In this document: in pieces, positions 1 to 32,504 of the stretch
How positions within the stretch are numbered: position 1 is the stretch's first letter
Layout of the letters: each line of letters begins with the position of its first letter
Assembly (NCBI GenBank): GCA_021208605.1
Contig: JAJOJK010000017.1
Location: 17,872-81,871, forward strand
Direction: 5' to 3'
From: Candidatus Woesebacteria bacterium
GTDB taxonomy: Bacteria; Patescibacteriota; Microgenomatia; UBA1400; UBA1396
Length of the DNA: 64,000 nt
Position numbers and translations under genes: made by a program
The notes under the pieces: model-generated
The model's database searches: none
What the model was told of the DNA's origin: nothing
What the model saw: only the letters and a program-made list of their open reading frames with translations

Positions 1-259
1 GATGTTTGAGCCAAAATATAATGGCTGTCAGGTTTTTATCTCGAATAGCGGAGAGTAGTTGAGCTTCGGCCATGTCGTTGATAAATAGCTCGCCAGCCAC
101 AATGGCTTCTTCCGCTTCTTTGGCAAATGTTTTGTTTTGCTTTTTCCAGCGATAATAGGTTGAACGGGCAACTCCTGTTTTCTCGCAAGCCATCTGAACA
201 ATCGGTGTTTTCTTGAGCTGTTCGATGAGTAATTTCTTTAATTCTTCTGGCTTGCTCAT
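1..259 (-). CDS. phage-type terminase small subunit, N-terminal part; the gene runs off the window start
   Basis: ATG at 259..257 overlaps the upstream stop (ATGA). Translation MSKPEELKKLLIEQLKKTPIVQMACEKTGVARSTYYRWKKQNKTF...LTAIIFWLKH has an HTH (ARSTYYRWKK) and an AIFWLK motif typical of phage terminase small subunits. No stop before position 1. The overlapping listed ORF 36..458 is in a different frame and is low-complexity. Confidence 0.55.
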   Translation of the reverse strand, partial: MSKPEELKKLLIEQLKKTPIVQMACEKTGVARSTYYRWKKQNKTFAKEAEEAIVAGELFINDMAEAQLLSAIRDKNLTAIIFWLKH

Positions 260-1002
260 ATCTGCCTCGCTTTCTCGCCAGTAAGTTTTTCCCAACGATT
301 AATAATGGTTTGGCAATACTCAGGATCGAGTTCAACCATGAAGCACTTCCGTTTTGTTTGTTCACAGGCAATGAGCGTAGATCCCGATCCGCCAAAACAG
401 TCATAGACAACTTCGCCACGGTTACTACTGTTAAGAATGAGTCTCCGTAGCAGTCCAATTGGCTTCATAGTGGGATGGAGTACTGATTTGTTAGGCTTGG
501 GGTAAAACAAAACGCTCTTGTCTTTGGACTTCACGAACTTGTGTCTGCCGTGCCAGCCATAGGCAATAAGTTCGTGTTGGGGAAGGTAATCTAGTCGGCC
601 TACTACCGCACTGTTTTTGATCCAAATTAACAGCTGAGCAAACTTTATGTCTTCATCTGTAAATGCATCCTCTAGTGCAAAGAGCATCTTGTCACTGTTG
701 AAGACATAGAAGGCATTTTTGCTGGCTAGGAATTGTTTAACAACATGAATCCAGTCCTGCATGAACTGTTGGTACTGAGTGTTGGTTTGGGGCTGGTCGT
801 TAGCTATGATTTTTTGTTTAGCTACCGACTGCGTAAAATCTTGCTTATTTTCCACATATCCCACCCCGTAAGGTACATCCGTGAGAACGACATCGATCAG
901 TAGTTGGCCAACGAGTTTTTTGACTATCTGAGCATTTGTGGCATCTCCACAAATCAACCGATGTTCCCCAAGTACAAACAGGTCTCCAATATTTATTGAC
1001 AT
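256..1002 (-). CDS. DNA methyltransferase, beta-class (N6-adenine or N4-cytosine), standalone
   Basis: Starts MSINIGDLFVLGEHRLICGDA with SD AAGGAGG before the ATG at 1002. Has a DVPYG (motif IV-like) and a C-terminal FGGSGST (motif I). Its C-terminus is paralogous to the C-terminus of the adjacent ParB-MTase. Confidence 0.7.
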   Translation of the reverse strand: MSINIGDLFVLGEHRLICGDATNAQIVKKLVGQLLIDVVLTDVPYGVGYVENKQDFTQSVAKQKIIANDQPQTNTQYQQFMQDWIHVVKQFLASKNAFYVFNSDKMLFALEDAFTDEDIKFAQLLIWIKNSAVVGRLDYLPQHELIAYGWHGRHKFVKSKDKSVLFYPKPNKSVLHPTMKPIGLLRRLILNSSNRGEVVYDCFGGSGSTLIACEQTKRKCFMVELDPEYCQTIINRWEKLTGEKARQI

Positions 1003-2265
1003 AGTTCTACCTCCTTGCCAGTAAGTTCTGTAAATCGCTTGATAATGAGATCGCAAAATATAGGATCAACTTCGCACAAGAACGCTCGTCGCTTAAGTTG
1101 TTCGCAAGCAATCAAGGTTGAACCTGAGCCGCCAAATAGATCTACGACTATATCCCCAGGTTTGGTGCACCTTCGAAGTGGTTTTTCATGCAGAGTTGGT
1201 GGCTTGGAAGTGGGGTGTTCATAGTCTTGACCAGGAAGTCGTTTCACCAACCAAAGATCAAGTAAATCGAGGATGTCATCCAATGTCCGATTTCCTGTGG
1301 CAACTTCCTTGTTGAGAACTTCGTTGAGATTGTTAATTGGTGCTAAGTATGGTTTGCCACGGGTGGCATACACACATGGTTCGTACGCTTTGTTGAAGGC
1401 CACCTGTGGAGTCATGTTGTGGTTGTTTTTGACCCACAGACAGACTCGCTTCAGATCGAGATTAAGATCCTGATAAGTTGACTGCACAAGACCGATCCAA
1501 TTTTGGTCGCACCATGTAAAAACGTGGCAATCTGGTGAAGCCACGCTAAGTGCATTGATTAAGATCTCTTGCAAGAAATTTTGGTACTCTGCAGAGCTTT
1601 TATTGTCCTGTTGGAAGTTACCGCCATACTTACCCTTAGTACTGATTCCTTTGTTGTAGTCCAGCGAGATGTTATATGGAGGATCTAGGTAGATCATCGA
1701 GGCTTGTTTTTTTCTGAGCAATCGTTTTACGCTTTCTACTTCTCGAGAGTCACCGCATAACAAATAGTGGTCTCCTAATTTGTAAAGGTCACCAGACTTA
1801 GTAGTAGGTATAGTAATTTCTTGTAACGTTTTTGCTTCATTAAAATGATCGTCTTCAATGGTCAAAACATCGTCCCAGACAGCAGAGAGATCCGAATCAT
1901 TGAAACCAACATCCAAGAGCATCTCGATATCAAATTGCTTTAAGAGCTCAAAATCCCATTGTCCGGTATTACGGTTTAAACGAAGGTTGAGTTCTTTTTC
2001 TCGTTCAACATCGGCAATGGAAACAAATAAGACCGGCACTTGTTCCATGCCAAGTTTTTTGGCTGCTGCCAAACGCATGTGTCCGCCAATGACCACGTTT
2101 TTGCGTTCTTCATGGTTATTGGCAATAACAGGATCAAGGAAACCAAACTTGTTTATACTCTCGCAAAGTTGCTTAAGAGCTTCCTCATCCCAAGTTCTGG
2201 GATTATATGGAGCGGGGTTAAGCTCCGAAATTGGTATGTAGTGTATGACGGGTGGTGTTTGCATC
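993..2265 (-). CDS. ParB-like nuclease domain fused to a beta-class DNA methyltransferase (DPPY)
   Basis: Start refined to MQTPPVIHYIPISELNPAPYNPR, which has SD AAAGGAGA 4 nt upstream. N-terminal ParB/Srx-like domain, then LGDHYLLCGD, DPPYN and FGGSGSTLIACEQ motifs. This architecture is typical of prophage MTases. Confidence 0.75.
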
Positions 2266-2310
2266 GCGTCTCCTTTCATAAAGGAGAACGCGCTCACAGG
2301 GTGTGAAGAT

Positions 2311-4297: not shown

Positions 4298-4903
4298 TTA
4301 AAGATGAGTTAAGTGGTCAGTGCCTGCTAGAAGTTTCAACGCATAATTACTGTTTGTTGAGTTATATTCAATAATAGTTAGTGAACACTCGAAAACATTG
4401 CTGTCTTTTGTTTTTGAAAAGTCTGGAAGAGCTTCATCTAGTGTTTTGCTATCAAAAACATTTAAAACAAAGTCAGTGATTACTCCACCATGTGTTATTA
4501 GTGCAATGTGCTCTTGAGTACCATCATGTGTTTCAATTACTTGCTGAATACGTTTTCCCGCATTACGAGATGAATCACCTACTGGTGGGGTCCAGTCACG
4601 TTCTAAACTAGCTTTTTCCCACATCGCCAAGAAATCTTCAAATGACTGTTCTGGGTCATCTCCCCAATTTACGCGCTCTCGTAGCAACGGCTCCGTTTCT
4701 ATACGAAACCCCGTTTTATCTGCCAAATATTTTGCGGTTTGTTGTGTTCTTAAGATAGGACTTGCAATTATTTGTTGTAGCGGGTGGTTAGACATATATT
4801 CAGCCGTAGCTATAGCCTGAGCGACACCTTTTTCCGACAGAGGAGGGTCACCAATAGTTTTAACTTTATCCCCGTGGCGAATTAAATAAAAAGTTTTATT
4901 CAT
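4298..4903 (-). CDS. histidine phosphatase family protein (phosphoglycerate-mutase-like), paralog 1
   Basis: N-terminal LIRHGDK (RHG catalytic motif) and ITHGG. About 50% identical to 19500..20126. Confidence 0.75.
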   Translation of the reverse strand: MNKTFYLIRHGDKVKTIGDPPLSEKGVAQAIATAEYMSNHPLQQIIASPILRTQQTAKYLADKTGFRIETEPLLRERVNWGDDPEQSFEDFLAMWEKASLERDWTPPVGDSSRNAGKRIQQVIETHDGTQEHIALITHGGVITDFVLNVFDSKTLDEALPDFSKTKDSNVFECSLTIIEYNSTNSNYALKLLAGTDHLTHL

Positions 4904-5956: not shown

Positions 5957-6436
5957 ATGAGTATTTTCGAAAATATTCTCCAAATCCTTGAAAAATCTGA
6001 TATTCCATACAAATTGATTGAACATGAGCCAGTTTTTACTATGGAACAGGCGGCTGAAATTTGTAATCATAAACCTGAACAAGGAGTAAAAACACTTCTT
6101 ACTAAACTCTATACAACGAAACGTCAGTTTGAATACTGGCTCATTGTTTGGCAAGGAGATGAGCAAATTCCTTTTACTGATATATGTTCCAAGCTAGATT
6201 TCAAGAGGAGTAAATTAGCACGACCTGAAGAAGTTATCGATATACTCGGAATCGAAATTGGAGCCCTAGCACCATTTGGATACGATACTGAATACCTAGT
6301 CATTTTCGATAAAAGACTTCTGGAGCAAGAACAGGTGTTTATCAATGCGGGCGTGCATGACAAAACGATTGCTCTTGCCCCAGATGATTTACAAACAGCA
6401 GTGGAACAAAATGCTCTCAGGTTCATTTTGAGTTAA
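5957..6436 (+). CDS. YbaK/ProX-type aminoacyl-tRNA deacylase (trans-editing domain)
   Basis: 159 aa in the size and sequence pattern of the YbaK/EbsC family (HEPVFTMEQAAE..., GALAPFG). Confidence 0.55.
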   Translation: MSIFENILQILEKSDIPYKLIEHEPVFTMEQAAEICNHKPEQGVKTLLTKLYTTKRQFEYWLIVWQGDEQIPFTDICSKLDFKRSKLARPEEVIDILGIEIGALAPFGYDTEYLVIFDKRLLEQEQVFINAGVHDKTIALAPDDLQTAVEQNALRFILS

Positions 6437-9668: not shown

Positions 9669-10088
9669 TTACTTCGTTAAATCAATAAATTGCACACCTT
9701 CAAAAAAAAGCTTTACTGCAGCTGCATGACCAGGAAGAACTTCTTGTAAATGAGCTGGATCAAACCACTCCCAACCCTCACATTTTCCTGGTTCACAAAG
9801 TGTCACTTCTTGATCATGAACCTCTGCTTGAAAAACAAAATGTACGAAATCATATGCATCTTGGTTTTCACGAACGATACCTAGAAATGTGAAATCTAGG
9901 CCTGTTAGTCCGGTTTCCTCCATTACCTCACGAGAGATAGCATTAGTCACTTTTTCATTCAACTCAATTCTTCCACCTGGCAAACCGTAGAAACCTGCTT
10001 TATAGCTATTCTTTCTCTTTCCAAGCAGAATTTCATTCTTTGAATTGGTAAGTACAGCACAAGTGCCAATTGGTTGATGTTTGCTCAT
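9669..10088 (-). CDS. NUDIX hydrolase (1 of 3 in the window)
   Basis: Nudix box GLPGGRIELNEKVTNAISREVMEETGL. Start refined to MSKHQ, placed 6 nt after TATAAT (leaderless). Confidence 0.75.
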   Translation of the reverse strand: MSKHQPIGTCAVLTNSKNEILLGKRKNSYKAGFYGLPGGRIELNEKVTNAISREVMEETGLTGLDFTFLGIVRENQDAYDFVHFVFQAEVHDQEVTLCEPGKCEGWEWFDPAHLQEVLPGHAAAVKLFFEGVQFIDLTK

Positions 10089-10203
10089 ACAAGTATTATA
10101 TCGGTCAAAAAAGTTCCAATTTCGCACCACTATTTCCGCCATCCCCAGTTAACACTTACACCGCGTATGAAGAACGCATTTTTTCTCAAGGAAATGATGC
10201 TAC

Positions 10204-11163
10204 TCAATCTGCTGCATCGGGAAGTGACGTCATTGTTTTCCTACTGAGTATGTTAAAGAAATCCTGCCGAAACTGTGAGTCATCGATCTGGACCACGACA
10301 TCAGCATTCGTTTTTCCTACTTTATGTGGTCGTTTTTCAGCAACGCTCATGCCAAAAGTGTGTTCGCCTTGGGTTTCAATTACGAGATCCATTGCTTTTA
10401 AGGTAAAAGCATGTGGATTCAGTAAGTAGTATGCAGCGAGAGCATCGTATACGAGAATTCCGGTGGTACCTTCATCTGAAGTTAAACCGCCAAAAAAATG
10501 TTCCATCATGGGAATCAAGATTGATTGGAGTCTCTCATTCTGTACTTTTCGGAAATCATCGACCTGAAGAATGACTGTATTACACACGTCAAGTGGAACC
10601 AGGACTTTCTGAACTTCGGCCTGAAAAACGTCATCAGCTGCCTCGGGATCAACAAAAAAGTTGAACTCAGCAACGCGGTTTTTATTCCCAGGAACATCTA
10701 TCGCACCGCCCATGATTACCAGTTGTTTCACTTTGCTTGAAAATTGTGAATCGAGTTGTATTGCCCGAGCAACATTACTCAGTGGTCCAAGTGCTAAAAT
10801 TGTTATTTCCTCTGGATTGGCAGTAACCAACTCAACCATTTTCTCAGGTGCATTTTGGGTAAGTCTGCAATCAGTACTCGAGGTATCAAATCCCGCCATC
10901 CCAGATTCACCGTGTACTACTGCGGTAACAAGTTTTCGTTTCAATGGTTCGTCAAAACCAGAAAAGATTGGAACCGGAGAACCAATCAAATCAAGAATTG
11001 CCTGTGCGTTTCTTGTTACCTTTTCAATCGTGGCATTACCAGCAACGGTGGTGATAGCCAGTACCTCAAATTGATCTGACAGGAGTGTCATCAAAATGGC
11101 TAGGGCGTCATCGTGTCCTGGATCGGTGTCGATGATAAGTTTTGGTTTGTTGTTTATTTGCAT
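10204..11163 (-). CDS. inosine-uridine-preferring nucleoside hydrolase family
   Basis: N-terminal DTDPGHDDALAI aspartate cluster. About 320 aa. Confidence 0.8.
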   Translation of the reverse strand: MQINNKPKLIIDTDPGHDDALAILMTLLSDQFEVLAITTVAGNATIEKVTRNAQAILDLIGSPVPIFSGFDEPLKRKLVTAVVHGESGMAGFDTSSTDCRLTQNAPEKMVELVTANPEEITILALGPLSNVARAIQLDSQFSSKVKQLVIMGGAIDVPGNKNRVAEFNFFVDPEAADDVFQAEVQKVLVPLDVCNTVILQVDDFRKVQNERLQSILIPMMEHFFGGLTSDEGTTGILVYDALAAYYLLNPHAFTLKAMDLVIETQGEHTFGMSVAEKRPHKVGKTNADVVVQIDDSQFRQDFFNILSRKTMTSLPDAAD

Positions 11164-12290
11164 AGTTTCTCCATGAGCGTTGAGAAAAACTCAACTGTTC
11201 GTTGATAATTTTTGATTGGAATTCGTTCTACGTTGCTGTGCCCGGTTTTTCCAAGCCCGCCTCCGAACATTAGTGCTGAGGGCTGATCGTATTGTTGCCA
11301 CATCATTTGTAAATCTAGGTAGCCCGTGTCTTGAGGATCTGACCAAGCCGTTTTATTCGTAGTGGGAACTATCTTTTCTATATCAGTTTTGGGTGTTATC
11401 CAAGCAGAGTAGTCATGTGTGATTTGCATGACTTCGAATTCAATCCTGTTCTTTGATGCAATATCACTCAGTTGCTTTTGTATAAACTGTGCCGTTACTT
11501 TCGGATTAGCCGGCCTGATATCAATCACACATTCACAAATATCTGGAATGATATTTCCGGCTTGGCCAACTTCTGTCAAAAATTCTCTTTGTAACGAGTC
11601 AGCCTTTTTCTGGCCACCAAAAATATAAGCTAAGTTTAAGCTCGTTTTTCCTAACTCAACGCTAGTTTGAGCATCTAAGATTTCCTTGAGAATAGCAACT
11701 AATCTGAATGTAGCATCAATTGCATTTCTTCCGTTCCCTTTGGCAGCGTGTCCAGACTTCCCAAAGACGCGAAGGCGTAACTCAATTAATCCGCGACAAG
11801 CATAGCCAACTTGGAGATCTGATCCATCTGCAGAAATGATTCTTTGTGGTTTTAGATCAGGGTACTCTTTTAAGAAACCCTTCATTCCCAGAAAGTCATA
11901 TTCCTCGTCGGCATACAGAACGATCCAAAAGTTATTAGCCTGAGGATTGTTTCGAGCTGCTAACAGCAAAGCAGCTAAACCAGATTTCATATCTGAGGCA
12001 CCGCGTCCCCAGATTTCACCGCCTTTCTCAATTGCTTGGCGCTGACTGGAGTCACTCGGTGCTACAGTATCCGTGTGTGCAAGAAAGAGAGTATCTGGAT
12101 TGCCTTTTTTGATGATGAGATTATATCGATCATTCCCAAGTGGTTGTTTTTCAATAGTTGCTGTCAACGTGTTTGCTACCCATTCTTCAATGTAATTCAC
12201 TAATTTTGTTTCATTTATACCCTGCTGATCATCAACATAGGAGGGTATTTCTATGAGTTGCTTGAGGAGTTCTATGGCTTCGTTGTTCAT
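11154..12290 (-). CDS. M20 family metallopeptidase (ArgE/DapE-like), paralog 1
   Basis: HTDTV, GRGASDMKSG, ADEEYDF. Overlaps its neighbours, so it is in an operon. Confidence 0.8.
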   Translation of the reverse strand: MNNEAIELLKQLIEIPSYVDDQQGINETKLVNYIEEWVANTLTATIEKQPLGNDRYNLIIKKGNPDTLFLAHTDTVAPSDSSQRQAIEKGGEIWGRGASDMKSGLAALLLAARNNPQANNFWIVLYADEEYDFLGMKGFLKEYPDLKPQRIISADGSDLQVGYACRGLIELRLRVFGKSGHAAKGNGRNAIDATFRLVAILKEILDAQTSVELGKTSLNLAYIFGGQKKADSLQREFLTEVGQAGNIIPDICECVIDIRPANPKVTAQFIQKQLSDIASKNRIEFEVMQITHDYSAWITPKTDIEKIVPTTNKTAWSDPQDTGYLDLQMMWQQYDQPSALMFGGGLGKTGHSNVERIPIKNYQRTVEFFSTLMEKLCK

Positions 12291-12958
12291 ACCATACCTT
12301 TCTTTTTTAATACATTGAGAGCACTGACAATATCAGGAGCAATAAAGTCCGCTTGAGTTTGCGCGTGTTTGGCAATTCGCAGAGTTTTCATCCCAATTTC
12401 TTTTGCCGGGAGGATGTCGGATTGCTCCTGGTCACCTATGGCTAAAATGGCTTTTGGTTCCAGGTTCCAATACTGTGCTAATTGGAGAAAAGCTGCAGGA
12501 TTGGGTTTACGGAGGTCAGATTCTCCAGTAAAGATTGCCTCGCCAAACAGGGATCGAATTTGAAGGAAATCCAATACTTTTTCGGTCCAAACTTGAGGAG
12601 CAGCGGTCAGTAGGCCGGCGCGTACGGATAACCCGGAGAGCAGCTGTGCTAAGGAATCGTTGTACTGCAGAAACCGTTCTGCGGGAACATTCCAAGTAGC
12701 AGCAAAGTATTCGTTTCGTGAGACGCCGAGCTCTTTTTCACAGGCAAGACTGATGTGCCCAGCATATTGCTTTTGAAGCTCCAGATACTTTTTTTCTGCA
12801 TCGTTTGCGGAAAGTGCACATTGTTTTTGTAAAAATGACAAAATATTAGCTCGAATGCACTGGCCAAACTGAGAAGATGCAAATGCACTCTCTTCGTTGT
12901 CATCAAATGCATAGAGAGTGCCATCCATGTCAAAAATGATGGCTTGGATTGTAGACAT
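12287..12958 (-). CDS. HAD superfamily hydrolase (phosphatase)
   Basis: FDMDGTLY (DxDGT) motif. Start MSTIQAI has SD GGAGG. The listed longer ORF reads through the leader and terminator. Confidence 0.75.
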   Translation of the reverse strand: MSTIQAIIFDMDGTLYAFDDNEESAFASSQFGQCIRANILSFLQKQCALSANDAEKKYLELQKQYAGHISLACEKELGVSRNEYFAATWNVPAERFLQYNDSLAQLLSGLSVRAGLLTAAPQVWTEKVLDFLQIRSLFGEAIFTGESDLRKPNPAAFLQLAQYWNLEPKAILAIGDQEQSDILPAKEIGMKTLRIAKHAQTQADFIAPDIVSALNVLKKKGMV

Positions 12959-12987
12959 ATGTATTCCTCCGTATTTCCTTTCTCCAT

Positions 12988-13010
12988 AAAAAAACCTCCC
13001 TTGCGGGAGG
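12988..13010 (-). terminator. intrinsic terminator/attenuator hairpin immediately upstream of the HAD gene RBS
   Basis: Minus-strand CCTCCC-GCAA-GGGAGG followed by T7, and then GGAGAAAGGAAAUACGGAGG...AUG of the HAD gene. Confidence 0.7.
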
Positions 13011-13038
13011 TTGCTCTTGTAGTTTCTTTTCTTGCTTT

Positions 13039-13110
13039 TTACGGCATCACCAACAAACACCTCCCAGGGCGGTTAAACCAGAAATGATGGTGCATGTTGT
13101 TGGTTTGCAT
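13039..13110 (-). CDS. putative leaderless leader peptide uORF, 23 aa: MQTNNMHHHFWFNRPGRCLLVMP
   Basis: AUG 7 nt after TATACT. Stop UAA at 13041..13039. A paralogous uORF sits in copy 2. Translation is unproven. Confidence 0.3.
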   Translation of the reverse strand: MQTNNMHHHFWFNRPGRCLLVMP

Positions 13111-13157
13111 TGAAGGGAGTATATCATAGTATTTTTTTGGCTTATACTCTAAGGAGT

Positions 13158-14397: not shown

Positions 14398-14598
14398 CTA
14401 CGGTTGACTCTTAATTCTCCGAATAGTGTGCCGATTGATCCAGGATTCATCTACGTAGAGATCAAGGCCATCCTCAGTTTCAAGCCGGACTAACAGTGTA
14501 TTGCGATCAGCAAGAGTTCCAAAGCCTGTTTTGTATGGTGTTGTGAGTGGTAGGGCAACTTCCAACAAATCTGTTCTGACTATTTTTGAATTACGCAT
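14398..14598 (-). pseudogene. truncated N-terminal remnant of an enolase-superfamily (MR/MLE, dipeptide epimerase-like) gene
   Basis: MRNSKIVRTDLLEVALPLTTPYKTGFGTLADRNTLLVRLETEDGLDLYVDESW matches the MR/MLE N-terminal domain pattern but stops after about 67 aa. The ATG overlaps the M20 stop (ATGCGTAA). Confidence 0.5.
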
Positions 14599-15703
14599 AC
14601 ATTTCTTCCTCCACATCCCGCAAAAACCTCCGCAGTCCCTCATAAAACGCCATCGTCGATTCTACATCCAGCCACTCGCTTTCCATATGAATATCTCCAC
14701 CGTGGGGTTTAATCATGAGAATTGGTATGTCAAATGCCGCAAAGTGTCTGGCATCCGAACCGCCATGGGTGGGTTTGATTTGTATCTTTTGCTGGTGCGT
14801 TGTTTCCAGTACTGCCAGGAATTTTTTAACGATCGGGAGTTCCGGATCGGTGGCAGTTGGAAGACCAGTTGCCAGCGGTGAGAAAGTGACCCGATTTTGG
14901 AAAGGTTCACACATTTCTGTGAGTTCATCCACTATGCGCTCGAAGCTGTCGGTTTCTGGATAGCGGAAATCAATCTGCAGGGTAGCACTGTCACAGACTT
15001 GGTTTGTGGAAATGCCGCCAGAAATTTTTCCAAAGTTCACGGTAGTTACCCAGCCTTCGGTGGCGTTATTGGCAGCGTAGCGTTTTTCTAACTTAGTTAT
15101 AATATGAGCCAGTGGAGTGATGGCATTTTCCCCATCCCAGAGTCTGGAAGCATGCGCTGATGTTCCAGTTGACTCAACCACAAATTGCGCCACACCCTTG
15201 GAGGCATGAACAAACTGAAGATTGTCACCACCATCAGGCACAATCAGTACTTTTGGTCGCCATTGTGCGGTTTCTGCCAGGTGCGCCGCGCCGTCAAGGC
15301 CGCCGATTTCTTCGTCAGTAGTAACAACGAATGAGAATTGAAGCGGGCTCTTGTTTTCGATCAATTCGTTCAGGAGGGCAATGCCGAGTGGAATTGAAAA
15401 CTTCATGTCGCTCACCCCACGGCCAAAGATCTTGTTTTCTTGCTGAGTCATGGTGAACATTTTTTCAGATGCCGCTACGACATCAACGTGCACGAGATAT
15501 CCGATATCTGGTTGCAGTGTGTCTGAATTACTGGCAATGAGTATTTTTGCTTTAGCATTTTCAATGACTCGTACGTTTGCTTGCGGCGAGAGCAGCGTGC
15601 GAATATATTCGATTGCCTGTTGATTCGCAGTCGTGTCAGCGGTGACTGTGGGGATAGCTACCAAGTCTGATAGCTGATGCAAAAATGTATCTTTGTGTAA
15701 CAT
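14591..15703 (-). CDS. M20 family metallopeptidase, paralog 2
   Basis: HVDVV, GRGVSDMK, TTDEE. Start MLHKD with SD GGAGAAAGGA. Confidence 0.8.
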   Translation of the reverse strand: MLHKDTFLHQLSDLVAIPTVTADTTANQQAIEYIRTLLSPQANVRVIENAKAKILIASNSDTLQPDIGYLVHVDVVAASEKMFTMTQQENKIFGRGVSDMKFSIPLGIALLNELIENKSPLQFSFVVTTDEEIGGLDGAAHLAETAQWRPKVLIVPDGGDNLQFVHASKGVAQFVVESTGTSAHASRLWDGENAITPLAHIITKLEKRYAANNATEGWVTTVNFGKISGGISTNQVCDSATLQIDFRYPETDSFERIVDELTEMCEPFQNRVTFSPLATGLPTATDPELPIVKKFLAVLETTHQQKIQIKPTHGGSDARHFAAFDIPILMIKPHGGDIHMESEWLDVESTMAFYEGLRRFLRDVEEEMYA

Positions 15704-15716
15704 ATTTCCTTTCTCC

Positions 15717-15744
15717 AAAAAAAAACCTCCCAGGTGGGAGGTGG
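15717..15744 (-). terminator. intrinsic terminator/attenuator hairpin immediately upstream of the M20-2 RBS
   Basis: Minus-strand CCACCUCCC-ACCU-GGGAGGUGG followed by T9, then GGAGAAAGGAAAUAUG. Confidence 0.7.
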
Positions 15745-15771
15745 ATTCTTGTTTCTTTTTGTTCTATTGCA

Positions 15772-15837
15772 CTACAAACAAGCACCTCCGCGGGTGGTCA
15801 TAAACCAAATAAGGGCGTAGCAGTTGTTTGTATGCAT
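15772..15837 (-). CDS. putative leaderless leader peptide uORF, 21 aa: MHTNNCYALIWFMTTRGGACL
   Basis: Same -10/N7/AUG geometry as copy 1. The peptides share M-x-T-N-N, WF and C-L positions. Confidence 0.3.
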   Translation of the reverse strand: MHTNNCYALIWFMTTRGGACL

Positions 15838-15920
15838 TGTGGGGAGTATAGCACAGTAGTTACGCGTTCAAAATGAAAACATATCCGGATTTGTAAGCGT
15901 TATTGTATAATACACAACTT

Positions 15921-16801: not shown

Positions 16802-17377
16802 TTATTTTTGTAGGAACTCCATCAACTGCCGCCGGCAATCATTTTTTGTTTGGCTGGCAATGTGTTGGTGCCACTCTTCGTTGGAAATTTCTGCCAAGGT
16901 TTTTCCAGGAAATTCAGCGGGAGAGTAGATCAGTAAAAGTTCTGTCCAGCCGCGTAAATTTTCTCCACGCGGTTCGTGGACGATTACCCCTGGTTCTTCA
17001 TCCATGAAGTAGTGATCTTGTTGGCCGTCGAATAAGCCGAGAGTAGAAATAAAACTGGCGCGACGGTCAGTTTGATCTTCCATCAATTTCAAAATGCCGC
17101 CAATTCCCAGTGTTTGTAGTACCGGTTTAACAAGTGGCCCCGGAAAACCATTGAGCGCGGGAATAGAAAACCCGCGGTCGTCAACGAGAACCGCCTTTCC
17201 TGGTAGGAGTTTTTTTGCTTGCTGAAGTTTGTGTCGAATGATTGCCTCACCGGTCATGAGTTGCAGTTCGTTCAGTTCAGTGGAATGCTGTTTCAGTGCT
17301 ATCGGCAGTTGTTGGAAGCGTCGCGCTAAACTGTCAAACTTCGCTTGATTGGTAGTAACGAAGAAAAGTTCTTGCAT
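16802..17377 (-). CDS. rdgB: non-canonical purine NTP pyrophosphatase (Ham1/RdgB/ITPase family)
   Basis: FVTTNQAKF and VDDRGFSIPALNGFPGP motifs. Start MQELFF is 6 nt after TACAAT (leaderless). Confidence 0.65.
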   Translation of the reverse strand: MQELFFVTTNQAKFDSLARRFQQLPIALKQHSTELNELQLMTGEAIIRHKLQQAKKLLPGKAVLVDDRGFSIPALNGFPGPLVKPVLQTLGIGGILKLMEDQTDRRASFISTLGLFDGQQDHYFMDEEPGVIVHEPRGENLRGWTELLLIYSPAEFPGKTLAEISNEEWHQHIASQTKNDCRRQLMEFLQK

Positions 17378-17405
17378 GGGGGTATTGTAGCGCAACGAAT
17401 ACCTT

Positions 17406-18134
17406 CTACTCACCTGAAAACTCTTTCGAGTAAAAGATTTTTTCCTCCGAAAAAATAACTACATCTCGACGGCGAAAGGGAATGTGAATTTCTAAAGCAG
17501 CAAAAGTTTCAGACGGAGTGAAGTTCAAGCTCTTACCAGTATTCAAGAAAATTTCCACCCAGGTGTCTTTTTGGACTGCGTCGACAATATGGGCCTTTTC
17601 TTGAGCGAGCGCTTGCATCGCAGTTTCCATTTTTTCCGTCGAGTCTGAGCTCTGAGCCAGTATGTGCCTGGGTTCACTTCCCCAAGTTTGCAGATTCCAG
17701 TGGCCGTAGGAGCTCAGTATACTGCGGTTCTCTAGCTGGATCTGCACAATCGATCCGTACACAATAAACGCATCTACGATACGTTGGGTGTGCAGCAGCG
17801 CTAAATCTTTGGCGGCCTGTTTGGGTGAGATGGAGTGTTTTTGTGTCAGTTGGATGAGCACATGGACTCGGTCAAAACTGTACACTCTTTTTTCGTGACG
17901 TCGCTGAGAGAGTTTTGGGAGTCGATTTTCCAGATAGCTCTCCAGTTTGGCAGGGTAGATTTCTTGCGCCGTGTCAGGATATGAGTACAACTCAAAAGTA
18001 CCTTGTGGAGTTTCAATCCAATGCCGCCATATGCGACGGTGTGCCGGTTCAAAGTACATGACATCTTCGATTGATCCAATATGCCAGTGATCGACAACGC
18101 GTTGAAGAATGGCCGGCGAATAGATACTGTTCAT
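17406..18134 (-). CDS. hypothetical protein
   Basis: Start refined to MNSIYSP, directly after the upstream stop. No known motif. Confidence 0.4.
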   Translation of the reverse strand: MNSIYSPAILQRVVDHWHIGSIEDVMYFEPAHRRIWRHWIETPQGTFELYSYPDTAQEIYPAKLESYLENRLPKLSQRRHEKRVYSFDRVHVLIQLTQKHSISPKQAAKDLALLHTQRIVDAFIVYGSIVQIQLENRSILSSYGHWNLQTWGSEPRHILAQSSDSTEKMETAMQALAQEKAHIVDAVQKDTWVEIFLNTGKSLNFTPSETFAALEIHIPFRRRDVVIFSEEKIFYSKEFSGE

Positions 18135-18352: not shown

Positions 18353-18823
18353 GAGTGTTTTCTAGATAGTTTTTTATTTTGTCTACGTACTTCATTCTCA
18401 CATCCGGTTCCGACAAATAACTTTTTTTCGTGAGCTCTTGATTAAACGCATCTCCTTCGTAGCGCGGAAATACGTGCATGTGGTAATGCAGCGCATGTTG
18501 ATCGCCAGCGGGTTCATTATTTTGGCGCAGAGTAATGCCGTCGCAGTGATAGGCTTCTTTGATCGCGATGCTCATCAATTTTGAATTTCAAAGAGACGGT
18601 GACCAACTTGACTAGGAGCAGAGTAGATATTCTCAAAATGCTCGTTTGGCACAATAATCACATGACCTTCATTTCCCTTGATCCAAAAAGAATTTATCCA
18701 CACGCTTACAAGATCGTCACGAAACACTAAGTCCGCTTGTTTGAGGAGCGTGTCGTCACTTTCGATACCTTGATTTCCTAGACAGATTGGGCAGATGTAG
18801 TTTTTGGGAGTGTTTATTTTCAT
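18345..18823 (-). pseudogene. HIT (histidine triad) family gene split by a frameshift
   Basis: The N-terminal ORF (CPICLG zinc-ribbon-like start, HVIIVPNEH) and the C-terminal ORF (NNEPAGDQHALHYHMHVFPRY, the HxHxHxx motif) are in different frames. They join within AAATTCAAAATTGATGAG. Confidence 0.6.
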
Positions 18824-19488
18824 CTCTCACCACTCTTCACAATACGCCCGTCTCTCACCACCGGGAAGAAGTCAAAAATACTTTCTTGCAGACACAGGTG
18901 GAAATCCTCTTCCGGGAATTTTTCATTGTTTGGATCTAAGAAATGGGTTTGGATCCACTCGTATTGGGCAATTGTGTTTTTCATATTTGCAAATGAGAGT
19001 GATTTTTCACCCAGCAGTGCCGAGTAGAGAGAGAGGGCGAACATATGGTCGTCATAGGCATCCATGGGGACAATCGTGATTTCTCGATCGGGAAATTGTT
19101 GTAAATACGAAACGAGAGCGCCCGCCATGACAAAGCTGCCAAAGAGTATTTCTTGCGCTTGTTTGGCATTGACTAAGCCTTGTGTGCCCGTTGAGCTGCG
19201 GTGAATGACTGTTTTCCCATCCAGATCATTTCTTCGGAGAATCTCGCTGGGTGAATTTCCGAGGTCAAAGCCAGGAATTATAATGCCTTTGTTCTCACCC
19301 ACCAGCAGCGTAGTATCATCATTTTTCAGTTGAAAGGCCTCTTCAGCAGTCGAAACCGGAAGAATAGAAGTTACTCCAGCATCAAGAAGATACGCCGCCA
19401 CAGACGCCGCTCGGAGTACATCGATTATTACGGCTATGTCAGTTGCTTGTTGGGCACCGTGTATGCCTGGAATAATCTGAATACGCAT
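18820..19488 (-). CDS. 2-phosphosulfolactate phosphatase (ComB) family
   Basis: IIDVLRAASVAA and GENKGIIIPGFDLGNSP. Start refined to MRIQII. Confidence 0.55.
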   Translation of the reverse strand: MRIQIIPGIHGAQQATDIAVIIDVLRAASVAAYLLDAGVTSILPVSTAEEAFQLKNDDTTLLVGENKGIIIPGFDLGNSPSEILRRNDLDGKTVIHRSSTGTQGLVNAKQAQEILFGSFVMAGALVSYLQQFPDREITIVPMDAYDDHMFALSLYSALLGEKSLSFANMKNTIAQYEWIQTHFLDPNNEKFPEEDFHLCLQESIFDFFPVVRDGRIVKSGER

Positions 19489-19499
19489 GTGTATACTTA

Positions 19500-20126
19500 T
19501 TGTATCGCAAAAAAACATTTTCTGGAAATACAACCGTGACCACCTTCACCCTCATCCGCCATGGCGACAAGCTTTTTTCACCGCTCGATCCGAGTTTGAA
19601 TGAACTCGGCCACGAACAAGCCCGCCGTACGGCCGAGTACTTAGCCGACCAACCAATCCAAAAAATCATTGCCAGTCCTTTGCGTCGAACGCAAGAAACA
19701 GCCCAGTATATTGCCGAAAAACTCAATTTACCGATTCACACCGACGAGCGTCTGCGCGAGCGCATTAACTGGGGAGATCGCCCCAATCAAACACGGGACG
19801 ACTTTGTGCAAACCTGGATTCAAACCAGTCGCGACCGCGACTATGTTCCGCTCGGAGGCCAGTCTTCCCGACAAGCTGGGGAGAGTTTTTTATCCGTAAT
19901 TACAGAGCAGATTGGTGCTCCTGAAGAACATATTGCGCTGGTTTCGCACGGCGGGATCATTAGCGACTTTTTGCGCAATATTTTTACTGAAGAGCAACTT
20001 GCGCCCATGAGTAAGAAATTTCCCAATGGCTTGGACTACGAAATCAAAGAATGTTCTCTCACCCAAATAAAGGTCGATACCGATTTTCAACTGATTTGTA
20101 TCAATGCCGTTGATCATTTGGTGTGA
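19500..20126 (+). CDS. histidine phosphatase family protein, paralog 2
   Basis: LIRHGDK and VSHGG. Paralog of 4298..4903. The true start may be the GTG at 19536. Confidence 0.75.
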   Translation: MYRKKTFSGNTTVTTFTLIRHGDKLFSPLDPSLNELGHEQARRTAEYLADQPIQKIIASPLRRTQETAQYIAEKLNLPIHTDERLRERINWGDRPNQTRDDFVQTWIQTSRDRDYVPLGGQSSRQAGESFLSVITEQIGAPEEHIALVSHGGIISDFLRNIFTEEQLAPMSKKFPNGLDYEIKECSLTQIKVDTDFQLICINAVDHLV

Positions 20127-20578
20127 TGGCCCATGCTACACTACATCTCATGACACCATTCTTTCATACCTCTCGTCAGCGCACGTTGTTTCTCGGCATC
20201 ACTCTGGGCGTATTGTTGCTCGGTTTACTCGTGTGGAAGATTGCTGGAACCCAATCCCTCTGGGAACCAACCGGCACTCCATCAACGGCCAGCCAGGCTG
20301 AAGGCACACCCGTTGACTTGCCTCGTGAATACACCTTTACTGCCTCTGAAGCCATGACAGCAGAGGAACTCCTCAATTCGCAGGCGGAAGTGGAGTACCA
20401 AGACTTTGGCCCAGGCGGAAAATTTGTGCAGTCGATCAATGGTCTGGCGAGTGATGAAATGTATTTCTGGGGGTTTTATGTCAACGACGAATTTGCCCAA
20501 GCTGGGGTAAGTCAGACGCAACTGCAACCAAATGATACGATACGTTTTACCTATGAAAAAATTGAACCACTTCAGTAA
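20123..20578 (+). CDS. DUF4430 domain protein (N-terminal TM anchor)
   Basis: GKFVQSINGL...YFWGFYVNDEFAQAGVSQ...NDTIRFTY matches the DUF4430 pattern. Confidence 0.55.
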   Translation: MMAHATLHLMTPFFHTSRQRTLFLGITLGVLLLGLLVWKIAGTQSLWEPTGTPSTASQAEGTPVDLPREYTFTASEAMTAEELLNSQAEVEYQDFGPGGKFVQSINGLASDEMYFWGFYVNDEFAQAGVSQTQLQPNDTIRFTYEKIEPLQ

Positions 20579-21062
20579 CCAAATTCTCGTCGCAGCTGGC
20601 GTTTTTGTCTGGCGAGCGGCGCGCGTCGCGGCGAACGTTTCTCCACTCGGAAGTTTCGGCTTTTTTGGGAGAGCACCAGTAGCCTACTTTGCAACTATCA
20701 TTGCGTTTGATTGGCTCGTAGGTGGTTTTTATAGTGGTTTTCTCTGGACCTATATCGCCTTTGCCGCGTATCCCATGTTTGGATACTTTGCTCGCGGTAA
20801 TTGGCGTCGCCAAGCAGTGTTGCTTCCTCTGGCTTCATTTGCCTTTTTTGCCATTTCGAATGCCGGAGTCTGGTGGCACTGGTATCCGCACACGTGGTCA
20901 GGATTGCTGACTTGTTATACGCTCGCATTGCCGTTTTATGTTCGGACTTTACTCGGCGATGTAACTTTTGGATATGGGTATTTGTTCTGTCGATGGCTCG
21001 TGCGCCAGAAAACTGGCAGTCATTGCACCAGAGTGTGCCCCTTTTTCGCCAAGCATAACTAA
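20553..21062 (+). CDS. polytopic membrane protein, possibly an ECF-transporter S-component-like protein
   Basis: Five to six hydrophobic helices. Overlaps the DUF4430 gene. Confidence 0.35.
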   Translation: MKKLNHFSNQILVAAGVFVWRAARVAANVSPLGSFGFFGRAPVAYFATIIAFDWLVGGFYSGFLWTYIAFAAYPMFGYFARGNWRRQAVLLPLASFAFFAISNAGVWWHWYPHTWSGLLTCYTLALPFYVRTLLGDVTFGYGYLFCRWLVRQKTGSHCTRVCPFFAKHN

Positions 21063-21128
21063 CTTGTCTTTCCTTCCAGCCTGACTTATACTGGCGTTTC
21101 TCAATCAGCTGCCCAGAAAGAATGAGCT

Positions 21129-21656
21129 ATGTCGGCAGAGGTACCTATTTCACCATCATATGGAGTCACCGCTCTTTTTGTTGGTCAAAACGGAGAACTG
21201 TACGGCTTACCGCTGTTGCGTGAAGATTCAGCATGTCAGAAACGGGAAGCGTGGCGTACGGCGAGTACTGCCCAAACCATTGCACAGGGGCGGCTGTCAG
21301 ATTTTTCTTACGGTGCGGTAGGCGGGGCAGTGGCAGCCGGTGAAACCCCACGCGAGGCATTGCGTCGCGAGATGGTCGAAGAGCTCGGTGAGCTGCTGCA
21401 CGACGGTGTTTTTGCACAGGAAATTATCAATCAATTCGTCATTCGTACCCTAGTTCGTATGCCCAGTTTTTTTATTGATCAGTATAAAAATGAGAGTTTT
21501 CGCGGTCGTTTTACCGTGTGGTCGACACTCATTTTGTTAGATACGGAAATACAGAACAGCCTGCAGTCAATTTTGCATCCGCTCCGCGAATCAGAAATGC
21601 ATCTGTATCGTCCACTATTACAAGCCCTCTACCAGACTGTCACTGGTATTCGCTAG
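21129..21656 (+). CDS. NUDIX hydrolase (2 of 3)
   Basis: GAVGGAVAAGETPREALRREMVEELG is a Nudix box. Confidence 0.6.
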   Translation: MSAEVPISPSYGVTALFVGQNGELYGLPLLREDSACQKREAWRTASTAQTIAQGRLSDFSYGAVGGAVAAGETPREALRREMVEELGELLHDGVFAQEIINQFVIRTLVRMPSFFIDQYKNESFRGRFTVWSTLILLDTEIQNSLQSILHPLRESEMHLYRPLLQALYQTVTGIR

Positions 21657-21679
21657 GATTTTTCGTCTATACTGCGTGC

Positions 21680-22300
21680 ATGTCGGTGCCTTTTTTTCTT
21701 GGAATCGCGGGCGGTAGTGGATCAGGCAAGACTACGCTTGCGCAGAATATCTTAAAAAACATTGATTCAGAGTCTATCTCTCATATTTCCCATGATGCCT
21801 ACTACCGCGATCAGTCGCACATGCCCATGGAAGAGCGGGTCAAAACCAACTACGACCACCCCAGTTCACTGGAGACAGATTTATTGGTAAACCATGTTCA
21901 CCAGCTTCGCTCCGGCCAGGCGATTCAGCAGCCGACCTACGATTTCTCTCAGCATACGCGCGCAGAAGCTACCGCAGTTGTGCAGCCACGGCCTATCATC
22001 ATAATCGAGGGCATTCTCATTTTTGCCGAACCAGAATTACGAGACGCTCTCGACATGAAGATTTTCGTCGATACAGATTCGGATATCCGCTTTGCCCGTC
22101 GGTTGCTACGCGATGTTGCCGAGCGCGGCCGCACATTTGAATTTGGTATCGAACAGTATCTGACCTATACCAAACCCATGCACGAGCAGTTTGTGGAACC
22201 GTCCAAGCGCTATGCCGACTTGATCGTTCCGGAAGGCGGAAAAAACAGTCGCGCCATCGAGGTCATTTTGTCCCAATTGCAGCGCATAGTGGAGCAGTGA
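21680..22300 (+). CDS. udk: uridine kinase
   Basis: GIAGGSGSGKTT P-loop and DAYYRD. Start MSVPFF is 6 nt after TATACT (leaderless). Confidence 0.8.
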   Translation: MSVPFFLGIAGGSGSGKTTLAQNILKNIDSESISHISHDAYYRDQSHMPMEERVKTNYDHPSSLETDLLVNHVHQLRSGQAIQQPTYDFSQHTRAEATAVVQPRPIIIIEGILIFAEPELRDALDMKIFVDTDSDIRFARRLLRDVAERGRTFEFGIEQYLTYTKPMHEQFVEPSKRYADLIVPEGGKNSRAIEVILSQLQRIVEQ

Positions 22301-31947: not shown

Positions 31948-32504
31948 TTAGCGGCGAGAAAAATAGCGAAAAAGAGCGTCGGCAAGTTCATCTATTGATG
32001 ATGAGTGATGCAAAGTATCGAGGCTCTCGTTGGCTTTCGTCGTGGCTCGAATAAGTTCAGCAGTATATAAGATGTCATTCGGTTTTTCCGGATGCCACGT
32101 CAGCGATACCTGAAGTGCAGTAGTGGGCCGAGCAAGTCGTCCCAGTGCTAATTCTGCAGTCAGAGTAATGTTCTGTATCTCCACGCGTTCTCCCCAAAGA
32201 ATAATCTGCACTTGGGCAGATGTAGTCAATCGATCAGAAAAACCATTTTTTTCATCCTCCAAGAGGGGTGATAATTCATGTATCCGGAAAAGCAGATGAT
32301 AGATAAAGTTGTTGAATTCTCCGTGTATCTTCTGATATTCAGTTTTTTTTGAATTGCTTTAAGGACATCAGAAGTAATATTTGGTACTGCGGTTGCTGAT
32401 TCGTGATACGGAGCAACTTCGGAATGGAGCATCGTTCCGCGGAGTTCGATTGTGGGGAGCATAGTTTCTTGTCCGTAGTATAAGGAAAGGAGTGGTTGTG
32501 TCAA
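31948..32504 (-). CDS. hypothetical protein(s): two overlapping ORFs (92 aa and 104 aa) in different frames; possibly one frameshifted gene
   Basis: 32226..32504 and 31948..32262 overlap by 37 nt. No recognisable motif. Confidence 0.25.

Follow-up and report, generated by a model that had tools for sequence, protein, structure and literature searches.

The stretch of DNA analyzed here, hereafter the window, comprises 64,000 nucleotides of contig JAJOJK010000017.1 from a Candidatus Woesebacteria genome assembly (GCA_021208605.1), and window coordinates are counted from its first letter. By exact protein matches, the window also corresponds to a Candidatus Woesebacteria / Microgenomates metagenome-assembled genome (GCA_021208925.1), within the Patescibacteria (CPR). 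On its minus strand, an operon encoding a HAD phosphatase, an M20 hydrolase (M20a), a nucleoside hydrolase and a NUDIX hydrolase is preceded by a compact leader, W1, in which a promoter element, a short histidine-containing open reading frame (ORF), alternative RNA pairings and an intrinsic terminator are combined. A paralogous leader, W2, stands upstream of a second M20 hydrolase gene (M20b). The parts of W1 and the genes behind it are as follows, each with its basis.

13126..13118 (-): extended -10 promoter element TGATATACT (sequence)
13110..13039 (-): W1 leader ORF MQTNNMHHHFWFNRPGRCLLVMP, 23 codons plus the stop codon UAA at 13041..13039 (sequence and homologs)
13108..13086 (-): region 1, which forms the 5' side of the leader hairpin (GCA, ACCAACAA, GCACC, UC) (folds and pairing tests)
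13092..13084 (-): regulatory codons His7-His8-His9 (CAC CAU CAU) (frame-specific codon bias)
13065..13044 (-): region 2, made of the GGGAGGUG core (13065..13058), UUGUUGGU and UGC (folds and duplexes)
13038..13011 (-): unstructured A-rich spacer of 28 nt, from the stop codon to the terminator stem (sequence and fold)
13013..12988 (-): intrinsic terminator, consisting of region 3 (CAA-CCUCCC), a GCAA loop, region 4 (GGGAGG) and U7 (terminator scan and fold)
12985..12956 (-): GGAGAAAGGAAAUA, which repeats the ribosome-binding site of M20b, followed by CGGAGG and the start codon of HAD (12958..12956) (sequence)
12958..9669 (-): operon HAD-M20a-nucleoside hydrolase-NUDIX, predicted to be regulated by W1 (Pfam and NCBIfam)
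12958..12287 (-): HAD phosphatase (Pfam/NCBIfam)
12290..11154 (-): M20a, an ArgE/DapE-like deacylase/peptidase (Pfam/NCBIfam)
11163..10204 (-): inosine-uridine-type nucleoside hydrolase (Pfam/NCBIfam)
10142..9669 (-): NUDIX hydrolase (Pfam/NCBIfam)

A preliminary description of this DNA had read here a -10 box, 7 nt, an AUG and a 23-codon ORF closed by UAA, all of which the sequence bears out: TGATATACT is separated from the leader ATG (13110..13108, minus strand) by the 7-nt spacer CCCTTCA, and transcription is predicted to start at the A of the AUG or 1 nt before it. The three His codons are directly followed by Phe-Trp-Phe codons (13083..13075, minus strand), and region 1 overlaps both the start codon and the His codons. 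In the long helix, ACCAACAA (13104..13097) pairs with UUGUUGGU (13056..13049), flanked by GCA/UGC pairs and containing an inner helix GCACC/GGUGU; the hairpin folds with -22.8 kcal/mol and the whole leader with -38.2 kcal/mol (z -2.79). The helix claimed in the preliminary description was thus recovered by pairing and by folding, enclosing 40 nt instead of about 37, and the A-rich spacer that it put at 35 nt is likewise present, at 28 nt counted from the stop codon or 33 nt counted from the end of the long helix to the terminator stem. Its terminator, CCUCCC-GCAA-GGGAGG-U7, was independently picked up by a terminator scan (13010..12988), and GGAGAAAGGAAAUACGGAGG begins, as described, 2 nt past the U-tract, with the HAD ATG at 12958 (minus strand). 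Region 2 can pair either with region 1 or, alternatively, with region 3, so that the 5' arm of the terminator doubles as an antiterminator partner. The upstream GGGAGG proposed as an antiterminator lies in GGGAGGUG (13065..13058) and forms with CAACCUCCC a duplex of -17.1 kcal/mol, a pairing that is kept in many related genomes. A generic scan for a -10 box, an ATG, a short ORF and a terminator returned W1 and W2 as the only sites in the window. A third motif match at 32446..32463, with 3 mismatches and without leader features, was discarded as a chance match.

Homologous leaders in related genomes, which the preliminary description had proposed to look for, were collected by searching an M20b profile against one genome per species and against metagenomes, and by gathering the neighborhoods of M20a and hutH homologs. 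Approximately 45 related leaders were found in other Patescibacteria, from Microgenomates, Paceibacteria-like and Saccharimonadia-like lineages (their loci are numbered below with the prefix L), at least four of them among the matches listed in the metagenome search; the frame and promoter statistics given below refer to 35 of them. One locus was left unused (L014, ~1050..1190), where a stretch of N and a duplication of the M20 start region just upstream of M20 point to an apparent assembly gap. The records of several loci (L005, L006, L009, L011-L015 and others) are titled 'uncultured Pseudomonadales', 'Gammaproteobacteria' or 'Saccharibacteria' (TPA_asm) despite containing Patescibacteria loci, and these titles are probably taxonomic mislabels.

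The nucleotide sequences of the leaders split into classes that are mutually unalignable, and a single anatomy is common to all of them. The leaders always stand immediately upstream of the same operon types and in the same orientation. A TAnnnT box is located 7-9 nt ahead of the ATG in 30 of the 35 leaders, frequently accompanied by a TG upstream of it or by TTGACA at -35, and a motif resembling a Shine-Dalgarno (SD) sequence upstream of the leader ATG was found in none of the 35. Given this spacing and the lack of an SD-like motif, a leaderless mRNA is predicted. The ORFs span 13-30 codons across the family, and frame 0 was open for 15-28 codons in all 35 leaders, the other two frames having medians of 0 and 8 codons. 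In leaders that share the design of W1, the stop codon and the terminator are 23-46 nt apart.

The codon content of this frame is strongly biased. CAY codons number 99 in frame and 9 and 21 in the other two frames, and TGG codons 43 against 4 and 8; TAY (41 vs 9 and 26) and AAY (76 vs 10 and 20) follow the same trend, and no frame bias was found for TTY, TGY or GAY. The bias is present in each of the three classes taken separately, and in comparison with the adjacent proteins, the leader peptides are enriched 7-11x in His and 4-7x in Trp. Length differences ahead of the His cluster amount to whole codons, and the class with the best sampling keeps its Asn, Trp and His residues almost without exception, with CAU and CAC interchanging. 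Overall, the third positions of the leader peptide showed no protein-like excess of variability; outside the His/Trp codons the peptide is poorly conserved, and frameshifts in its C-terminal part are tolerated, as seen in L051 and between W1 and W2. His and Trp codons that are frame-specific and toggle synonymously argue for regulatory codons and against both a functional protein and an aptamer. A separate candidate, the sensing of queuosine through GUN-anticodon tRNAs and NAY codons, is not supported, as Asp is not enriched, Trp is enriched, and the third-base U/C preferences of His and Asn are opposite.

The comparison also revealed three mutually exclusive pairings in leaders of the main design, namely the hairpin 1:2 over the His codons, the antiterminator 2:3 and the terminator 3:4, in which region 2 lies within the 3' half of the ORF, is rich in G and complements the terminator 5' arm (region 3). 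Across the homologs, the 2:3 duplex has a median of -16.5 kcal/mol and a median z of -3.1, with z below -2 in 23 of 30 leaders. The core of this duplex differs by class and its complementarity is kept: GGGAGGUG/CACCUCCC, GCGGAG/CUCCGC, CGAAGGG/CCCUUCG, CGGGGUUGUG/CACAACCCCG and GCGGGGUG/CACCCCGC. In class III, the antiterminator core is 98.9% paired and includes 2 compensatory pairs. For the 1:2 hairpin, 86% of the positions pair in register, and 43-58% do so in slid controls. For the long helix of class I, to which W1 belongs, an explicit comparison in register and slid was made after RNAalifold, run on a sequence-based MAFFT alignment of the class I ORF regions, had missed it: 69% of the positions are paired in register against 32-50% slid, and the covariation score is 0.281 against 0.075-0.159 slid, with 31 of 500 shuffles reaching the observed score. 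The covariation that the preliminary description had proposed to look for in this helix is thus apparent in the in-register comparison, and we consider this support as real, yet modest.

The position of these pairings relative to the codons was analyzed with a stall scan, in which a 30-nt ribosome footprint was masked for each A-site codon and the leader refolded. In W1, the predicted terminator is lost with the ribosome at codons 1-9 and retained at codons 10-22, which places the boundary exactly after His9; in L007, L013, L015, L025, L050 and L079, the boundary falls 0-3 codons past the His/Trp cluster. Since the terminators of class III are too stable for the full-length scan to be informative, transcripts truncated before region 4 were used, and in nearly all leaders the antiterminator is predicted to form whenever the ribosome stalls no later than the last codon of the cluster. 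In W1, L011 and L007, the partner of the region 2 core is the segment of the His codons itself; in class III, it is the codons just past the cluster. In the fold without a ribosome, the G of the AUG and the bases following it are paired in the W1 and W2 hairpins, and the terminator arm of both leaders is free of the ORF.

The genomic company of M20a is related to histidine. Of the six M20a orthologue loci that we examined outside this genome, five have a predicted leaderless short ORF (sORF) with a His run ahead of the operon, and at L159 no leader was seen ahead of the M20a operon. All six M20a-operon leaders, including W1 (MQTNNMHHHFWF...), have His runs, which comprise 3-5 His codons in the other genomes.

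L156: leader MLYCITLRHQVHHVLHTVGVVIHFS, before M20a-nucleoside hydrolase-HAD
L161: leader MLLNMIFSQNNHHHHAISGVI, before CntK-like racemase-HAD-nucleoside hydrolase-M20a
L160: leader ...NSHHHIHHII, before a hutH-led M20a operon
L163: leader MTQAHHHVQVVQL, before a hutH-led M20a operon
L162: leader MTTHSHHHHIYKLN, among the six M20a-operon leaders

The lyase genes in these regions are assigned to hutH, since they score 609-642 bits where the NCBIfam equivalog cut-off is 539, and near the M20a orthologs or their leaders we also found genes for a CntK-like histidine racemase, hisG/hisI/hisE, hisS, and LOG-like and aspartoacylase-like genes. In L156, which belongs to a 75%-related genome, the M20a operon has another gene order and an unrelated His leader.

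A second leader design was observed ahead of six of the seven hutH genes examined and of one M20a operon, where the predicted leaderless His-run sORF is arranged differently.

L159: 6290..6195 (-), second-design leader
L160: 1153..1240, second-design leader
L162: 1538..1607, second-design leader
L163: ~1140..1205, second-design leader
L164: 2417..2500, second-design leader
L165: 2412..2500, second-design leader
L167: 2392..2500, second-design leader

No antiterminator was detected in these leaders, the most stable pairing of the ORF with the terminator arm reaching -3.6 to -7.3 kcal/mol (z -0.5 to +1.4). Their stop codon lies 0-11 nt ahead of the hairpin, or the ORF reads through the hairpin, the last His codon keeping a constant distance of 19-26 nt from it; in L165, the leader stop codon overlaps the hutH ATG. 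The seventh hutH gene (L166) lies inside a hutG-hutI-hutH-hutU operon and has no leader. This layout suggests that an unstalled ribosome would occlude the terminator in a pyrBI-like manner, so that hutH would be ON with plentiful histidine, a sign opposite to that proposed for W1. In the open literature on hutH, leader peptides and attenuation, we found no report of such control of hutH.

W1 is probably a leaderless, ribosome-mediated transcription attenuator that senses His-tRNA and turns the operon ON when His-tRNA is scarce. We infer a transcription start at the A of the AUG, where a 70S ribosome would load at the 5' end, and likewise that the ORF is translated, that ribosomes stall in it and with which sign the operon responds. 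With plentiful His-tRNA(His), the ribosome would traverse the 23-codon frame and depart; regions 1 and 2 would then pair, region 3 would pair with region 4, and the CCUCCC/GGGAGG-U7 terminator would halt transcription at 12988, before HAD. With scarce His-tRNA, the ribosome would stall at His7-9 and mask region 1. Region 1 contains the His codons, and a stall there would thus free region 2, which would capture the emerging region 3 as an antiterminator and let RNA polymerase enter the HAD-M20a-nucleoside hydrolase-NUDIX operon. In transcripts with no ribosome, hairpin 1:2 would also bury the start codon, and termination would be the default outcome.

Several observations weigh against this interpretation. 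W1 holds only three His codons, and the His run is absent in W2, L005 and L077, so that the members of the leader family would not all sense one and the same amino acid. None of the enzymes is biosynthetic, and only gene neighborhood connects them with histidine. The covariation statistics of the 1:2 helix are modest, with the alignment-based RNAalifold run having missed the class I helix, and the 2:3 duplexes of W1 and W2, taken singly, are no outliers against shuffles (z -1.9 and -1.2). Additionally, a ribosome at the stop codon leaves the GGGAGGUG core uncovered, and the thermodynamic scan predicts the 2:3 pairing at the last codons of W1. Since the core is free in that position, termination after unstalled translation would need fast release of the ribosome or a kinetic re-formation of the 1:2 hairpin.

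One rival explanation retains the stalled ribosome as the switch of the same RNA structures and changes the signal, with the nascent His/Trp/Tyr-rich peptide acting as an arrest peptide for a free metabolite or drug, or with general translation stress being sensed. Arrest peptides acting in the exit tunnel are known from the TnaC, SpeFL and Erm leaders, the conserved features of the present family also lie in amino-acid and codon space, including Trp and aromatic residues, and the outcome at the RNA level would be identical to that of starvation. We nevertheless regard this reading as unlikely, given that the order and spacing of the residues differ by clade (HHH-x-W[FY], WHY, NNWHHNH, HHHH), that the distance to the stop codon varies in these ORFs of 13-30 codons with no fixed motif spacing as in the TnaC/SpeFL type, that the C-terminal half is frameshifted in L051 and between W1 and W2 without loss of the element, and that runs of a single codon type are the signature of tRNA-supply sensing. 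An attenuator of opposite sign, in which efficient translation keeps the operon ON and a His stall turns it OFF, as suspected for the hutH leaders, would fit relatives within the same operon family, whose His leaders have a terminator that abuts or lies inside the ORF, and in the thermodynamic scan regions 2 and 3 may pair while a ribosome occupies the stop codon of W1. However, a 28-nt spacer follows the ORF in W1, the antiterminator, a part that the hutH-type leaders lack, is conserved, and its partner, region 1, contains the very codons at which a stall would free region 2; this sign is hence decidedly improbable for W1.

The preliminary description had left the attenuator reading open between a leader peptide and a metabolite riboswitch. 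A riboswitch in which the long hairpin is the aptamer and the ORF is incidental would be in keeping with the structured hairpin, with the alternatively pairing expression platform behind it and with some covariation. Nonetheless, no Rfam family matched the leaders at the gathering threshold, and the loop and junction nucleotides are not conserved between clades, where conservation instead falls on the ATG at the predicted start of the transcript, on the frame staying open and on its His/Trp codons; the hutH-type relatives even keep the His ORF without any hairpin of this kind. Since frame and codons are conserved across clades and the nucleotides of a ligand pocket are not, the attenuator reading stands with the leader-peptide option, and a riboswitch is very unlikely. 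The layout of anti-antiterminator, antiterminator and terminator is also used by protein-mediated attenuators, so that an uncharged tRNA or an RNA-binding protein similar to PyrR, TRAP or HutP might bind the hairpin and choose between terminator and antiterminator. No binding motif is conserved across clades, though, Rfam gave no PyrR or T-box match, the element is too short for a T-box, and the conserved, predicted leaderless frame with its codon bias would be left unexplained, all of which makes such a switch hardly probable. Finally, W1 has its own promoter, ORF and terminator, it encodes a peptide with many His and Cys residues, and M20 enzymes belong to the metalloenzymes, as might be expected from an independent small gene encoding a micro-protein, for instance a metal-binding His/Cys peptide, or a small RNA, with no control over the operon. 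We give this little credence, because the element is always found right ahead of the same operon types and in their orientation, because the conserved 2:3 complementarity is useful only for the control of read-through, and because the peptide is poorly conserved outside the His/Trp codons and tolerates frameshifts.

Considering both leader designs together, we tentatively raise the possibility that W1 is one member of a Patescibacteria-wide 'histidine ribulon', in which leaderless His-codon mini-ORFs would read the supply of His-tRNA and control histidine-handling operons with either sign. In the design of W1, L156 and L161, an antiterminator would turn scavenging operons (M20a, nucleoside hydrolase/LOG-like, HAD, His racemase) ON in starvation; in the design found at the six hutH loci and one M20a operon, histidine catabolism would be ON only when His-tRNA is plentiful.

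The second copy reported in the preliminary description proved genuine and is 79% identical to W1. Its features, together with the gene behind it, are the following.

15853..15717 (-): paralogous leader W2 (sequence, terminator scan, fold and generic scan)
15853..15845 (-): W2 -10 element TGCTATACT
15837..15772 (-): W2 ORF MHTNNCYALIWFMTTRGGACL
15741..15717 (-): W2 terminator CCUCCC-ACCU-GGGAGG-U9, with the terminator-scan hairpin at 15742..15725
15703..14591 (-): M20b, a second M20 hydrolase, preceded by W2 (profile matches)

Between the two leaders, the long helix shows a compensatory change from C-G to A-U, and a 2-nt indel shifts the reading frame. From this indel, it was at first concluded that no peptide is conserved between W1 and W2, a view that was revised once the homologs were compared: W1 follows a HHH-x-W[FY]F...GRG type, and W2 a WF...GG-x-CL type. 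The peptide MHTNNCYALIWFMTTRGGACL of W2, like those of L005 and L077, has lost the His run and kept Tyr/Trp/Phe/Asn codons. We propose that W2 works as W1 does, with these codons replacing the His run, and the two leaders of one genome may respond to different amino acids. The M20b ribosome-binding site GGAGAAAGGAAAUA (15704..15716, minus strand) is copied in W1 at 12972..12985 (minus strand), ahead of the CGGAGG of HAD, and because of this copy, the W1 leader looks duplicated from the M20b locus to the HAD operon.

M20b is by its position under the predicted control of W2. It is 28% identical to M20a, and a search of solved structures yielded no function for it. In other genomes, M20b adjoins MR_MLE (N-acylamino-acid racemase-like), Asp/Glu racemase or low-molecular-weight-phosphatase-like genes, and the respective leaders mix His, Trp, Tyr and Asn codons; this company hints at a pathway turning D- or N-acyl-amino acids into L-amino acids. 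M20b shares an operon with such genes in L156 (9109..10227), L030 (384..488 and the next gene), L019 (664..783) and L055 (645..771), and the same pattern was seen upstream of M20 in L047, L053, L054 and L057. Wherever M20b is not the first gene of its operon, the leader stands ahead of the operon's first gene.

At the gathering threshold, Rfam detected only four tRNAs in the whole window. E-value searches with W1 and W2 returned only leader-peptide attenuator families, below threshold and matched over the full model length. Phe_leader (RF01859) scored 21.3 bits with W1 and 26.3 bits with W2 against a gathering score of 55, and His_leader (RF00514) 18.2 bits against 49, so that the elements are members of neither family. 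The Phe leader, the best near-match, shares the hairpin-spacer-terminator layout, but W1 and W2 fall below its threshold and have no Phe run. The gamma-proteobacterial hisL leader (RF00514) resembles W1 in its short ORF with a His run, its alternative hairpins and the intrinsic terminator before the first gene, and a stall on its His codons should favor read-through, as proposed for W1. However, hisL has seven His codons and an SD-led start, where W1 has three His codons and a predicted leaderless start; the stop codon precedes region 2 in hisL and follows it in W1; and the targets of the known His leaders are histidine biosynthesis or transport genes, whereas W1 precedes HAD, M20, nucleoside hydrolase and NUDIX genes in a patescibacterial host. 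His-leader attenuators with 3-5 His codons have been predicted in the Bacillus cereus group, Peptostreptococcaceae and Erysipelotrichales (PMC9413887).

In layout, the closest known system is the leaderless attenuator of ilvBNC in Corynebacterium glutamicum, for which a three-hairpin model is backed by mutational analysis (PMC11857589). Its hairpin H1, an anti-antiterminator that blocks initiation and antitermination, includes the start region, H2 is the antiterminator and H3 the terminator (PMC11857589). The start region lies within the first hairpin in both systems, but the ilvBNC leader senses Ile/Val/Leu where W1 would sense His, the phylum and the targets differ, and W1 is known here from its sequence alone. 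In mycobacteria, leaderless polycysteine short ORFs have been described, with several operons per genome sharing one signal (a 'ribulon'), and a ribosome stalled in the codon tract remodels the downstream RNA with an effect on translation (bioRxiv 10.1101/834739). W1 would resemble these sORFs as a leaderless sensory ORF with a run of a single codon type; the mycobacterial ones act on translation, while W1 has a canonical intrinsic terminator and is predicted to act on transcription. The proposed mechanism is classical, as in the his, trp and phe leaders, and what is new is this leader family, its phylum and its targets, which are scavenging hydrolases instead of biosynthetic genes. In the open literature on Patescibacteria, we found no report of an attenuator, a leader peptide or a leaderless mRNA.

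Within the window, a GrpB gene lies on the plus strand, divergent from W1. The surroundings are rich in small nucleotide and phosphate hydrolases and related genes (4298..4903, 5957..6436, 9669..10142, 16802..17413 and 18820..22300), which include three NUDIX, Ham1, two His_Phos_1, a 2-phosphosulpholactate phosphatase-like gene, a uridine kinase and a YbaK-type tRNA-editing domain. A pair of DNA methylase genes, one ParB-fused and one plain, is located at 256..2297. In a metagenome-assembled genome of the same species (GCA_021209405.1; L002), UUUU replaces UUU inside the W1 leader ORF at ~5660, which corresponds to window position ~13056; with the extra U, the leader AUG and HAD share one reading frame, and the 'HAD' gene called there has 274 aa instead of 223 aa. 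This fusion is either a homopolymer assembly error or a genuine fusion variant, and it calls for caution with annotations in which the leader has been joined to the HAD ORF.

Almost nothing is known about gene regulation in Patescibacteria, and the leader family described here offers a concrete cis-regulatory mechanism in these uncultured and largely auxotrophic cells. The leaders constitute sequence-level evidence for leaderless initiation and for the coupling of translation to transcription in this phylum; the histidine ribulon, if true, would imply that this coupling is tight and that leaderless initiation is routine in minimal Patescibacteria cells. Together with their neighborhoods, the leaders tie widespread M20, nucleoside hydrolase and HAD operons of unassigned role to histidine, providing a functional handle on these genes.

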